Part shown: one piece after another, positions 40,701 to 46,700 of the stretch | How positions within the stretch are numbered: the stretch's first letter is position 1 | Layout: each line of letters opens with the position of its first letter | Assembly: GCA_012295275.1 (NCBI GenBank) | Contig: CM022667.1 | Location: 1,922,001 to 1,986,000, forward strand | From: Chrysomallon squamiferum | Taxonomy: Eukaryota > Animalia > Mollusca | Reading direction: 5' to 3' | DNA: 64,000 bases | The notes under the pieces: model-generated | Told to the model about the DNA's origin: nothing | What the model saw: the letters and a program-made list of their open reading frames with translations, nothing else | The model's database searches: none | Made by a program: the position numbers and the translations under genes

Positions 40701-43700
40701 GACTACATAATCTCTACTGGTATTATCCAAAACAAGTGAGAGGAGAAGTAGAACTGTTTGAACACAACATTTCAACAGAGGCAGAGAAGCATTTTGGCAT
40801 GTAAGTACATTTCTTTCTCTATATATATACTTATATATATATTTATTAAACAAAATCCATTAAAAGTAAATCTGATTCGTAGACATTATTTTAATCATGT
40901 TTGTTAATTAAACAAATTAATTATAAGTCAAATTCATTTTATTTTTGAAATGAATCTGTGAAAGTTCTTTTTTTTTTAATTACATATAGTTATTAAAACA
41001 AAATTCATGTTCGTATGTAGATATTTATTTAATTACGTTTCGTAATTCAGGTATAATTAATTAAAAGTCTGTTTCGTGTTTATTCATTTGTTTCACCACT
41101 AACCGAAAGAAAATTTATTAAAAATCAGTTTCATATGTACCAAATTTTATGTATTAATTAATTTACTTGCGTGTACTAATTAATTTTTGTTTTTGTTAAA
41201 ATATAATTAGGGCACAATAACTGACTATGATTATAACAATGATGTTGATTATGATGATTATAACGATAATTACTGAGATAATGATTAAAAGATCTAATAT
41301 GTCGATGATAATGAGAATTATAAATAAAATGAAGAAGAAAATGATGATGACGATGATGAATGATGATGATGAAATCAGTATTATGATTTTTTTTTAATCA
41401 TTCTCTTTTCCAAAAAATTCATTTATTCATTCAAAAGTGGTGAAAGTTTTTATGGCATTTTTGACATATTCATTGCATGTTTTGGATTAAAGTTCATTTT
41501 GTATCAGTTACTAATTATAAAATAATATTTAACGTTAAATATAATTTATTAAAGCATGTTAATTATATTTGTACATACAATGGTCTCATAGTGGGCATAG
41601 TGATTTGTATTACATGCATGTGTATGAGTGTATGTGTGTGTGCCTGCGTGTGCGTGTCTGTGTGTGGAAAGAAGATAAATACATTGTACTTACTTGCAAT
41701 GTAAATTCTAGGACTGCATGGAATGTTAACGATGTGAAATTTGTTACCAGTTGCATGTTCGTATACAAGTCTGAAGTGAAAGATATTTAGTTAATATTTA
41801 GAAATATATATGCAAACGCGATGTGAATGCACACACACACATTCAAATTTATATAAAAAGCTATACACATTTTGATGACCTCCCCAAGGGTACCAAAAGA
41901 CGCGAAACGATCTTTTTTCCAGCTTGCAGAATAGTTCTTAGTAACCTCAATCTTCGACTCTTTTCTCTCCTATATGTATGTATGTATATATATATATATA
42001 TATATGATATGTATATATGTACATATGTATACCAACATTAAATTTAGCATATCTGACACTTAAATGTTTTATATTAAACTATGTTTAGGTGTCGTTAAAT
42101 TATATATTTTTGTGTTCACTCTCTCGCTTGCTTTTTTTTTCTTCTCGTCTGTATATTTGAGTGTTGATGTACGAGAGAGAGAGGTGTGTGTGTCTGTGTT
42201 TGTATTTTAGTATTTGTTTGCTCGTTATTTCGCTATAATGTTGTTTTGTAATGATGTTAGGTTTTCCGTGTTGTGTCTCTATCTCAAAGTTTTTGTTGTT
42301 GTTTTGAATGCTTGGCCAAGAATAGTATTGTTTATTGTTTGTTGTTTGTTATTTTTATTAAATCTATTATGATCATTATACTTTAATTATTTGTTTCTAT
42401 TATTTTTATTATTATTACTATTATTATTATGATCATTATCATTCTTCTTCTTCTTCTTCTTCTTCTTCTTTTTCTTATTATTATTATTCTTCTTTATTAT
42501 TATTATTATTATTATTATTATTATTATTATTATTTCATACTACTGATGCTGCTGCTTTTTAGATTTCTGTTCGCTTCTGTAAATTTGTTTTTAAAGTTTT
42601 AATTTCTTTTAATTTTAATCACTGATATTACATAAAGTAAGAAGGCATTAAAAGATATATGTAAGTTAGAAACTGTAAACCGCTGAAACCAATGTCTTGG
42701 GCTGTTAGTGATAATGAACATTTTAAAACTAGCTAAATCTATGGCCTACTAAAGTTAAGATATTTGACATTAACTACAAATATGAAAGTAAATATATAAA
42801 TAGATATATAAATAAATAAACAGAACAACAAATAAACAAACAAACTCTCCAACAAAAAAACAACGAGAAATAATAATGATAATAATAATAATAATAATAA
42901 TAATAATAATAATAATAATAATAAAAAAAACCGAAAGAAAAACCTCACAAAAATAATTTATTACCAAGAAATTTTTATCTACATCATTTCATCATCATGA
43001 TGGTCATCATCATCATCATCATCATTAATCATTGCCACAAGAACCAACACCACAATTACTACTAATCTTAACTACAGCTTATTTAACCTTGTTTTCGTAA
43101 ACGCTTACTTTACTTACCTTTCTCTGCGTGCGTGCGTGCGTGCAAGCGTGCGTGGTTCTGGGTGTGCTTGCGTGCGTACGTGTGCGTATTTGTGATAATA
43201 ATATAATTCCATGGCTGTTATATTATTCCTCATTTTTCTGTTTGATCCAAATCTTTACATATATATATATATATATATATATTGCTTTACTTATCTTTCT
43301 AGCTTATTTCGTGTGTTAAATAAACCAAAAAATGTTTTCACCCCGTCTCCGCATTTCTGCTTCTCTTCTAGCCCACATATCACGTTTCGAACAGTCTTTT
43401 GGTCGATGCTTGGTAGGGGCGAACCGCAGGCCGTAGAACTCGACGGATACAACAACATGTTCACGCAAAACGTCGGATACTGGATATTTGGCGTCTACAA
43501 CGTCGCCGTTGTCATTGTCTTGTTGAACATGTTGATAGCTATGATGTCAAGGTCGTTTGAGATCATTCAGGTAAAAAAAATTAACAAACGTTTAGGCGAC
43601 GACAGATTCTAGACTGAACTAGAGTGAAATATTTTTTTTGTTTTTTTTTTTTTTTTTACCAACACTCAACCCCTGGGCGTCTGTGGTTTGCATGGGAAAG

Positions 43701-46700
43701 AACATGGAAGTGGTATTTGTCAAACAGTACCTTTGATAGTATGGATGAATAGTCTTATGCTATATATTTATATATGCTATATTTCCAAGATATTATTTTG
43801 TTGTTTAAACAGCGACTTATCGTTGCTAATCACAAAGTACGACCTGTTAGAAATAACAATTTTACAAAACAGTCGAACGCCGCCATTTCATCCTTTCGCA
43901 GCTGAAGTTGTGACGTCATTGCCTACATGGCCGACTGACAGCTGCATTTTTCTCACAGCTGTTTACGCGATGACGTCAGAGACAGGAAGAAAGGGCGGCG
44001 TGCGCATCATAAAGAAACATGTATTCTTACGCGGTCTTATTCCTTATTAATTAAGACTAAATGGGGAAAAAAAAAAACAAAAAAAATCTTGGAAGTATGC
44101 AAAATTTATTTAGACTGTTCATCGTATCATCAAAGGTATACGTTAAGTTTAGAAGCTTACGTGTAAGGACTGCAGACGTCGTTGCCATGGTGTTGCTTTT
44201 TCTTCAGTTTTGATAAAACGTTTCGGACGTCGTTTTGGTCAGTACTGGGCAGAGGGGAGCCTGAGATTGTGGAACTCGGCGACTACAAAAATTACTTGAC
44301 TCAAAATGTCGGGTACTGGATATTCGGCGCCTATAACGTTACCATAGTGATCGTTCTGCTAAACATGCTAATAGCCATGATGTCCAGATCGTTTGAACAG
44401 ATACAGGTAACGTTTCCGTAAAACACGCAGGTAGATCTGAATAGCAGAGCATGTTATATACAGGTAATTTAATTCTAGAACATATATATATATATATTTA
44501 TTGTTAGCATACATATACAGGTAATTAAATATTAAAACGTATATACAGGTAATGTAATATTAAAACATATATACAGATAATTTAATGTTAAAACATGTAT
44601 ACAGGTAGGGTAATGTTAGAACACATATACGGATAATTTAATATTAAAATGTATATAAAGGTAATTTAATACTAAAATGTATACACAGGAAATTTAATAT
44701 TAAAACATACAGACAGATAATGTAATATCAAAATTTATATACAAGTAATTTAATGTTAAAACATATGAACGTATATACAGATAATTTAATATTAAAACGT
44801 ATATTCATGTCATTTGATATTAATACGTATATACAGGTAATTTAATGTTAAAATATGCATACAGGTATTTAATATTACATATATACATAGTTAATTTAGT
44901 GATAGAATATTAGTATATTTGTATGTGTCTGGATTACTTTATAAAATTATTTATTGTTATTTAACAAATTTTAATTATTATTATTATTATTATTATTATT
45001 ATTATTATTATTATTATTATTATTATTATTGAAATAATGACAAGCAATGTGCAGAAACAAATAAAGAATTATAGACAATGTTTTCAAAATAAAATGATAT
45101 CAACAATTATTTAAATGATAAAATAAATTAGGTTCTACCGAGACTTGAACTCGGATCGCTGGATTCAGAGTCCAAAGTGCTAACCATTACACCATAGAAC
45201 CGATATTTTAACACTTTAATAATGTTATTCTCATCTCTACGTTAAATTAGTGTGATATTATTTTAACATTTTAATAATGTTATTCTCATCTCAACGTTAA
45301 ATTAGTGTGATATTATTTTAACACTTTAATAATGTTATTCTCATCTCAACGTTAAATTAGTGTGATATTATTTTAACATTTTAATAATGTTATTCTCATC
45401 TCTACGTTAAATTAGTGTGATATTATTTTAACACTTTAATAATGTTATTCTCATCTCAATTGAAAAAGAAGACGTTAAAAAATAATTATAATGATATTAT
45501 TTTAACATTTTAATAATGTTATTCTCATCTCAACGTTAAATTAACTCGGATCGTGTTCAGATATTATTTTAAACATTTTTAATTTAATGTTATTCTCATC
45601 TCTACGTTAAATTAGTGTGATATTATTTTAACACTTTAATAATGTTATTCTCATCTCAACGTTAAATTAGTGTGATATTATTTTAACATTTTAATAATGT
45701 TATTCTCATCTCAACGTTAAATTAGTGTGATATTATTTTAACGCTTTAACAATGTTATTCTCATCTCAACGTTAAATTAGTGTGATATTGTTTTAACACT
45801 TTAATAATGTTATTCTCATCTCTACGTTAAATTAGTGTGATATTATTTTAACACTACATTATTCGTACTGAAATTTATTTTAACACTACATTATTCGTAC
45901 TGAAATTCACGTACAAGGTGAGACAGATTTTACTTTTTTTTATTTTTTCTGATTCAAAAAAGAAAATATCTGCATTTCGATTAACTTGGTAAACCACACC
46001 GAAGACGATGAACATAATTACAATAATCATGATTATGACAACGAAGAAGACGTCAATAACGATGACGATGATGATAATAATAATAATAATAATAATAATA
46101 ATAATAAAACAATAAATAAATGTTAAATATATTTACACTAATCTGCTACTATACTATTGTCATTCTACTGCTACTACTACTACTACAACTCTACTACTAT
46201 TACTCTACCACTACTACTACTACTACTACTACTACTACTACTACTACTTCTAACACTACCATCCAGAGGACATATAAAGACTATAACATTTTCTTATTGA
46301 ATTTTAAAGCACCGAATGTTTGTTTTATCTCATTTGTAATCAATGGATTTGCCAATAAAATTAAATTATTGCTTTAAATAAGTATATGTTAATGACATTT
46401 AAAAGTAGTGTAAAAGTCTAAATAATAATAATAATAATAATAATAGATGTAAATATATATATATATATATTATTATACATAGTTATAATTTAAAATTGTA
46501 TTATCAGAAGTGCTTCGCTAATGATGTAAAATGTATTTTATGCTGTTACCTATACATGTTTGCTAACAAGGTGAAATTCATATACTTAATCATCACTGCA
46601 TGTATTTATGAAATAAAACTAATATGATGTATTTTAGACTTATATTTCGTATAATTTATATGATGTATTTTAAATCATAATGAAGGTTTATATCATAAAC

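Follow-up and report, generated by a model that had tools for sequence, protein, structure and literature searches.

Can a single TRPC gene of the gastropod Chrysomallon squamiferum make two channels that differ in the pore? The question is raised by 64,000 nucleotides of contig CM022667.1 (the window), where a first-pass annotation had noticed two tandem exons, A and B, each encoding the pore helix, filter, outer loop and S6 of what proves to be a gastropod TRPC3/6/7-like channel. Our best explanation, which we hold to be likely, is that these are tandem pore exons used in a mutually exclusive manner, giving two subunits with a shared filter and gate.

The gene and its two pore exons

The exons and the intron between A and B are collected in Table 1. 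The predicted N-terminus matches Pfam Ank families and TRP_2 (PF08344, 88 bits), and the ion-transport domain PF00520 scores 24.8 bits with A and 26.9 bits with B, against a cutoff of 25. The pore helix, glycine filter and S6 of that domain can be aligned to TRPC6. In TRP channels of this kind the TRP box after S6 is an EWKFAR-like motif, and here the exon that follows the pair carries EWKFSR. Similarity is highest to TRPC6 (140 bits), with TRP-gamma at 113 and TRPC5 at 105, and the tree places the channel inside a gastropod clade (SH-aLRT 99) as an ortholog of mollusc 'TRPC7-like' proteins. Judged by its sequence the gene is a TRPC of the TRPC3/6/7-like type, in agreement with the annotation. 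Human TRPC6 and TRPC3 (PDB 5yx9 and 6cud) are the closest solved relatives of A, B and the large N-terminal exon; no duplicated pore exon is reported for them in the literature searched.

Table 1. Features of the TRPC gene in the window.
Feature	Coordinates	Strand	Remarks
N-terminal coding exon	25654..25766	+	has an acceptor; start exon not located
Ankyrin-repeat exon	28784..28942	+	
Ankyrin and TRP_2 exon	29786..30277	+	
Linker exon	34137..34313	+	
Pre-S1 exon, scrambled	34902..35120	+	56 codons interleaved with 51 extra nt
Transmembrane-region exon	36988..37237	+	
Transmembrane-region exon	38175..38314	+	
Loop exon	38605..38704	+	
S4 and S4-S5 exon	39721..39872	+	
Upstream exon, S5 and turret	40646..40800	+	ends in phase 2
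Pore/S6 exon, copy A	43372..43570	+	199 nt, phase 2-0; slower-changing copy
Intron between A and B	43571..44207	+	637 nt
Nested inverted repeat in A-B intron	43727..44139	+	predicted long stem; probably repeat-derived
Pore/S6 exon, copy B	44208..44406	+	199 nt, phase 2-0; more divergent copy
Downstream exon with TRP box EWKFSR	47023..47250	+	starts in phase 0
C-terminal exon	48862..49011	+	
C-terminal exon	49383..49449	+	
Last coding exon with stop codon	50784..51376	+	

From 36988 onward the gene model, with either A or B, is one frame of 678 codons with a single terminal stop, and 276 codons are open before the scrambled pre-S1 exon. The interleaving alignment of that exon scores 96, compared with at most 41.6 in 25 shuffles, and its extra nucleotides amount to exactly one unit length of the adjoining minisatellite. 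The scrambling is probably an assembly consensus error. If it were genuine the whole gene would be a pseudogene in the sequenced animal, and no intact copy of the exon was found within the 64-kb window. Yet ortholog-like codons plus exactly one minisatellite unit are what a consensus error would be expected to leave, and the frame is open on either side of the lesion, so that we give the pseudogene very little credence.

Exons A and B are adjacent and homologous, and equal in length and phase; each is preceded by AG and followed by GT, and they share the same open frame, all as the annotation had described. It had also counted their shared residues correctly: 50 of 66 are identical (138 of 199 nucleotides), with no indels and with different codons at 28 of the 50. 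The third codon position accounts for 38 of the 60 coding-base differences. Homology is confined to the exons and the flanks are unrelated. A tblastn search of the window finds no pore-exon copies other than A and B, and when four orthologs were mapped the pore exon was placed twice and the other exons once each; the other exons found in the gene are single-copy.

When A alone or B alone is joined to the upstream and downstream exons the result is 194 codons without a stop. Joining both gives a stop at codon 120 (TTT TGA, 44208-44213), and skipping both gives one at codon 94, within the downstream exon. The frame is thus restored by either exon alone but not by both or neither, which upholds the earlier deduction that exactly one must be used. 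Messages with both or neither would carry early stops and would likely be subject to nonsense-mediated decay.

Selection, age and relatives of the pair

A codon model of A against B gives omega = 0.068 at dS ~2.6. The value omega = 1 is rejected (LRT 50.6), and the profile-likelihood range excludes 0.2 and above. In neutral simulations 50 identical residues were retained in 0 of 5000 runs at each of four divergence levels; even at d = 0.3, where they were never retained, the frame stayed open in only 17%. Similarity by chance is excluded. Among 20 mollusc orthologs 30 columns of the segment are invariant, and these hold just one of the 16 A/B differences (p = 3e-4). A breaks none of the 30 and B one, by the change V8S. 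Since the differences of B avoid the invariant columns, B is itself constrained. With dN/dS ~0.07 at dS ~2.6 and a change in B at 1 of 30 invariant positions, the sequences indicate an old duplication with both copies long under purifying selection, as the annotation had proposed.

These values bear on two other explanations. B might act mainly as a poison exon, inclusion of A and B together triggering decay and so setting channel levels; the combined message does reach its stop immediately, with several junctions downstream. Such a role needs no constraint on the protein, yet 50 residues are kept while synonymous sites are saturated, and we regard it as most improbable. The annotation had named uncollapsed haplotypes or separate paralogous genes as what would overturn it. 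At least one local error is present in the assembly, and abalone and oysters have whole-gene paralogs with diverged pores. But a nucleotide identity of only 69%, dS of 2.6, unrelated flanks and the lack of any other doubled exon count against both readings, and of five groupings tried one, a clade of B with the abalone paralog, is rejected (p-AU 0.018). Both fail, and the idea that A and B are haplotypes, or that B is the remnant of a separate gene, is largely refuted and very unlikely. In trees of the 66-residue segment the other four of the five groupings are not rejected, and such trees give no date for the duplication.

A second assembly contains an open reading frame, P0001, that is A-type (65 of 66 residues identical to A), and a second pore-exon frame, P0155, identical to B at 37 of 47 residues and to A at 34 of 47. 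Both come from 721,011-bp ENA contigs. It seems that a related species holds two pore-exon copies on one contig, although P0155, whose placement in the segment trees is ambiguous, may instead be part of a paralogous gene arranged in tandem, the situation in abalone. P0155 breaks three invariant columns. If it is the ortholog of B, then B changed at 10 of 47 positions between the two species and A at 0 of 47 (p = 0.001).

Ortholog clusters (10 clusters, 129 members) were examined for 98 listed members, 80 of which have the segment. In no species among these 80 do the isoforms of a single gene show two versions of it, so wide conservation of the pair across molluscs is not seen. None of 34 longer and 29 exon-sized protein matches is closer to B than 83%, nor is any of the top 150 of 627 representative matches. 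A metagenome scan with B gave three distant loci (37-40% identity) that were left out of the analysis. Tandem copies of the pore exon were found in other TRPC-family genes.

Proposed choice between A and B

We infer that each exon is used in mRNA, A likely serving by default and B in a more restricted way. RNA-run matches over 40620-44440 (three to four runs) are mostly to repeats and short intron pieces, leaving the three exons uncovered, and weigh neither way.

The A-B intron is too long for simple steric exclusion, which we reject. A canonical branch motif could be recognized for neither exon A nor exon B. The acceptor of B has a short AG-free zone, and a distant branch point for it is unsupported, there being eight other AGs within 120 nt. 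The inverted repeat in the intron is predicted to pair 43729-43755 with 44112-44137 and 43779-43791 with 44086-44098, with an inner part at 43877-44001, and reaches over the acceptor tract of B in two of three folds. Speculatively, this stem may mask the acceptor. The intron folds with a z-score of about −7, but one control window in 22 scores as low and pieces of the repeat match other contigs, so the stem is no evidence of function. A docking-selector pair was not identified: of 1013 inverted-repeat pairs, the 25 longest are all A/T microsatellites. Apart from a tRNA, an Rfam search returned just miRNA matches driven by microsatellites.

Exon B might instead have been long functional but be rarely used now or recently abandoned, the animal making essentially the A channel only. 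The short AG-free zone and the predicted pairing of its acceptor fit this, as do the longer branch of B (0.39-0.40, compared with ~0.02 plus a shared 0.16-0.22 for A) and its seven residues seen in none of the 20 orthologs, V8S in an invariant column among them; A has three such residues. However, B keeps its frame, its length and both splice sites, its changes stay off the invariant columns, and simulated neutral drift seldom spares the frame and never the identical residues. We consider abandonment of B unlikely.

The predicted channels and their counterparts

We mapped both exons to human TRPC6, taking from PMC7082128 the filter (F683/G684), the gate (L723/I727/F731) and seven agonist/DAG-site positions. 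The filter, lying in an LGRGE segment identical in both copies, the glutamate after it and the gate do not differ between A and B; the LLNMLIAMM gate was rightly called invariant. Two of the seven agonist/DAG-site positions differ, the E672-aligned residue being His in A and Asp in B and the V710-aligned residue Val in A and Ala in B. This is no enrichment over the 16 of 66 overall. Ala at segment position 41 is common among orthologs. Net charge over positions 15-33 is −2 in each, and the DG/GD exchange, which had been listed as a charge change, merely shifts the acidic residue. The two predicted subunits would be alike in filter and gate but differ in pore-helix, outer-vestibule and S6 side chains.

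A NALCN-type switch of the selectivity filter is ruled out, as both forms have LGRGE, and the suggestion of different Ca2+ permeability is weakened. From these positions the most likely effect would be a tuning of lipid or agonist gating and of outer-pore behavior; a change in which ions are preferred is less likely. Permeation can nevertheless change when the filter stays as it is, given that Lymnaea Cav3 exons 12a/12b, outside the filter, alter ion preference (PMC9694082, PMC7382465). Those exons encode an extracellular turret loop and are functionally proven; the likeness is that of a snail channel with alternative exons beyond the filter.

Invertebrate NALCN has mutually exclusive exons 15a/15b and 31a/31b (Senatore et al. 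2013, PMC3557258), tandem exons over pore helices and filter in a snail and other invertebrates. NALCN is a four-domain channel whose exons swap the filter residue E/K and both of whose forms were cloned and measured; by contrast, the TRPC pair leaves the filter unchanged, includes the whole of S6 and is predicted from genomic DNA. Closer in family is trematode TRPM-MCLZ, where some species have a duplicate of an exon that includes the pore (3a/3b) and transcriptome data support the use of one or the other (PMC12861061). There it is a terminal exon with the whole channel domain, unlike the internal cassette of the TRPC gene. Long and short pore-loop variants of mammalian TRPM3 demonstrate that splicing in the pore region changes channel properties (PMC9290681); the loop changes in length, and the accessible text does not describe a duplicated exon. 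Mutually exclusive exons are also noted for Drosophila TrpA1 (10a/10b, PMC11471635) and Bactrocera TRPL (2/3, PMC6137742), the latter a TRPC; these cover N-terminal or pre-membrane parts, unlike the pore exons here.

No description of a duplicated TRPC pore exon was found in a search of the main texts of mostly non-subscription papers; supplements of tandem-exon catalogues such as PMC9013439 could bear on the novelty. Either-or pore exons as such are published, in snail NALCN and fluke TRPM. Together with the tandem copies in other TRPC-family genes this lowers the novelty of the pair. Limulus TRP cDNA variants, reportedly described by Bandyopadhyay and Payne in 2004, are possibly an earlier case of invertebrate TRPC variants.

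If both exons are used, splicing alters a TRPC pore in this animal, whereas in abalone and oysters the entire gene was apparently duplicated. The two predicted channels would differ only at 16 residues, located in the pore helix, outer loop and S6. The corresponding part of human TRPC6 binds DAG and agonists (PMC7082128), and with all other residues shared A and B would be a natural matched pair for gating studies. Taken with the tandem copies in other TRPC-family genes, the pair suggests a route by which channels have diversified repeatedly, one not found in print for TRPC in the literature searched. More tentatively, and with considerable doubt, the pore-helix/S6 exon may be a hotspot of independent tandem duplication in invertebrate TRPC paralogs, this being the first case of the DAG-type TRPC3/6/7 group, with differences at the lipid site and a repeat-derived intronic stem that sets the choice. 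If that is true, A and B would offer a ready experiment on the control of TRPC gating by pore helix and S6.

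Structure and constraint of the duplicated pore exon

The first-pass annotation proposed two pore/S6 exons, here called A and B, and their coordinates are confirmed (see table). Each is 199 nt long, preceded by AG and followed by GT, with the same open frame. They are identical at 138 of 199 nt; the encoded peptides share 50 of 66 residues, there are no indels, and the split codon of each is Ile. The similarity ends at the exon edges as judged by tblastn and flank comparison, and tblastn found no third copy in the window. Joining either A or B to the flanking exons gives 194 codons without a stop. 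The early TTT-TGA claimed for double inclusion is indeed present (TTT TGA at 44208-44213, a stop at codon 120), and skipping both exons loses the frame as claimed, with a stop at codon 94. We consider A and B to be a real, probably functional pair of mutually exclusive pore exons, and infer that both are used in mRNA. No contig from the RNA runs compared with this region covers them.

Features of the TRPC gene region (window coordinates)
Feature	Position	Strand	Remarks
tRNA-Gln genes, six	14401-20151		clustered, upstream
Scrambled pre-S1 exon	34902-35120	+	56 ortholog-like codons interleaved with 51 extra bases
Upstream flanking exon	40646-40800		
Pore/S6 exon A	43372-43570	+	
Nested inverted repeat	43727-44139		A-B intron; predicted long stem (folding)
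Pore/S6 exon B	44208-44406	+	
28-bp minisatellite	44455-44898		minisatellites start just after donor of B
tRNA-Gln gene, seventh	45130-45201	-	intron after B
55-bp minisatellite	45204-45855		
Downstream flanking exon	47023-47250		

Among solved structures, human TRPC6 and TRPC3 are the closest to the A and B peptides and also to a 164-residue exon at 29786, which scores 140 bits to TRPC6 and 113 to TRP-gamma. The named relatives are mollusc 'TRPC7-like' proteins, 64-86% identical over the pore exon. When four orthologs were mapped on 25654-51376, the pore exon was matched twice and every other exon once. A quick tree places the gene within gastropods (SH-aLRT 99), beside caenogastropods with weak support (87). 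From 36988 onward the gene model with A or B is a single 678-codon frame with one terminal stop; the start exon was not located in the window. Nor was an intact copy of the pre-S1 exon found there. The extra bases in the scrambled copy amount to exactly one unit of the adjacent minisatellite (35200-35450), and its interleaved-codon score is 96, compared with 41.6 for the best of 25 shuffles and 25 for the best of 12 control windows. The lesion is probably an error in the assembly consensus, which would mislead gene annotation; if it were real, the gene would be dead in this animal.

An old duplication under purifying selection had been suggested, and the substitution pattern agrees. Synonymous sites are saturated between A and B (pS 0.78, pN 0.16), and fitting a codon model yields omega 0.068, dS 2.6 and dN 0.18 (LRT 50.6 against omega = 1). 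Judging from the alignment, constraint applies to B itself, because B breaks just one (V8S) of the 30 columns invariant in 20 orthologs, and of the 16 positions at which A and B differ, only one belongs to these columns (p=3e-4); A breaks none. Neither uncollapsed haplotypes nor chance resemblance can account for the pair. B carries seven residues unseen in orthologs and A three, so B has moved further.

Splicing and predicted channel differences

Steric exclusion by a short intron is ruled out, as the A-B intron is 637 nt long, and a distant branch point for B is argued against by eight other AGs no more than 120 nt from its acceptor. The acceptor of A is pyrimidine-rich and AG-free over 69 nt, and A looks like the default exon. 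The exon length of 199 nt is not divisible by three, so messages with both exons or neither would carry early stops. Nonsense-mediated decay is the established pathway removing such messages, and would be expected to act on these. The A-B intron folds strongly (z about -7) with high pair probabilities in the stem, and the acceptor tract of B is predicted to be paired in two of three folds. Yet the stem may be only a repeat insertion, because equally strong folding was seen in one of 22 control windows and pieces of the inverted repeat match other contigs; the window holds no second copy. The donor-like word CAG-GTAAT is part of the 28-bp minisatellite unit and recurs many times.

On alignment to TRPC6, the filter positions F683 and G684 and the gate positions L723, I727 and F731 (TRPC6 numbering) are identical in A and B, and both have the glutamate aligned with E687. 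E687 has a role in Ca2+ permeation. Twelve of the 16 differences lie within positions 1-30 of the encoded segment; A and B have the same net charge across positions 15-33, but B has an additional acid two residues past the glutamate. The available part of PMC7116371 describes acidic residues at the entrance to the filter as important. Functional positions were those named for TRPC6 in the accessible text of PMC7082128, placed by alignment. Two of seven agonist/DAG-site positions differ, no enrichment over the 16/66 background: E672 is His in A and Asp in B, and V710 is Val in A and Ala in B. In human TRPC6 the OAG response is abolished by E672A and cut by >80% by V710A (same text), and Ala at the latter position is common among mollusc orthologs. 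Two channels differing in conductance, Ca2+ permeability or block had been envisaged. Tuning of gating and outer-pore behavior appears more likely from these residues; a change of ion preference is less likely, given the identical filter, gate and glutamate. In snail Cav3, loops outside the filter can alter ion preference (PMC9694082 and PMC7382465, in part).

Counterparts and recurrence in the TRPC family

An ortholog survey gave 10 clusters with 129 members, of which 98 were listed and 80 of those contained the segment. No species had two pore versions among isoforms of the gene among the matches listed (98 of 129), and the A/B pair is therefore probably lineage-restricted. P0001, an ORF from another assembly (ENA), is identical to A at 65 of 66 residues with a similar acceptor flank. 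P0155, from the same assembly, matches B at 37 of 47 residues and A at 34; each comes from an ENA contig of 721,011 bp. P0155 may be the counterpart of B, or part of a tandem paralog as in abalone (54% identical over its length), and trees favor neither. As a B counterpart it would imply a far higher rate of change in B than in A (10/47 versus 0/47, p=0.001). Whole-gene paralogs of this TRPC occur in abalone, oyster and freshwater mussel (P0032, P0131, P0132, P0024, P0031 and P0035), with a diverged pore-helix start; those of abalone and Potamilus lie on contigs equal in size to that of the main gene.

The S6 motif occurs more than once in 9 of 306 proteins compared. Four are read-through ORFs from other animals, P0241 (closest solved match TRP-gamma), P0304, P0198 and P0203, each with two copies of the pore/S6 exon 12-16 codons apart. 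Identity between copies is 56/65 in P0241, 55/65 in P0198 and 50/65 in P0203. The spacers correspond to introns of ~35-47 nt, as deduced from the protein, and such very short spacers, in three kinds of ORF, would force exclusive splicing. More divergent tandem copies occur in P0233 and in two gene models from Caerostris spiders (P0168, P0305). P0005 and P0306, from ENA contigs, are tandem arrays of 65-74-residue repeats, each with the 3' end of the exon and its donor flank; they apparently represent a satellite derived from part of a TRPC gene and were not counted as exon pairs.

The first-pass annotation left novelty to a literature check. We found no description of a duplicated TRPC pore exon in the literature searched, supplements and the Limulus report on TRP variants lying beyond its scope. 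In the parts of the sources available, splicing in the pore loop is reported for TRPM3 (PMC9290681), and TrpA1 (PMC11471635) and TRPL (PMC6137742) have either-or exons outside the pore. The A/B pair would work like NALCN 15a/15b, but lacks their defining filter swap, the filter being unchanged (PMC3557258, in part), and a duplicated exon containing the pore is reported for fluke TRPM-MCLZ (PMC12861061, in part). Duplicated or either-or pore exons are already known in NALCN and fluke TRPM. Given the tandem copies in other TRPC-family ORFs and gene models, duplication of the pore/S6 exon looks recurrent across TRPC paralogs.
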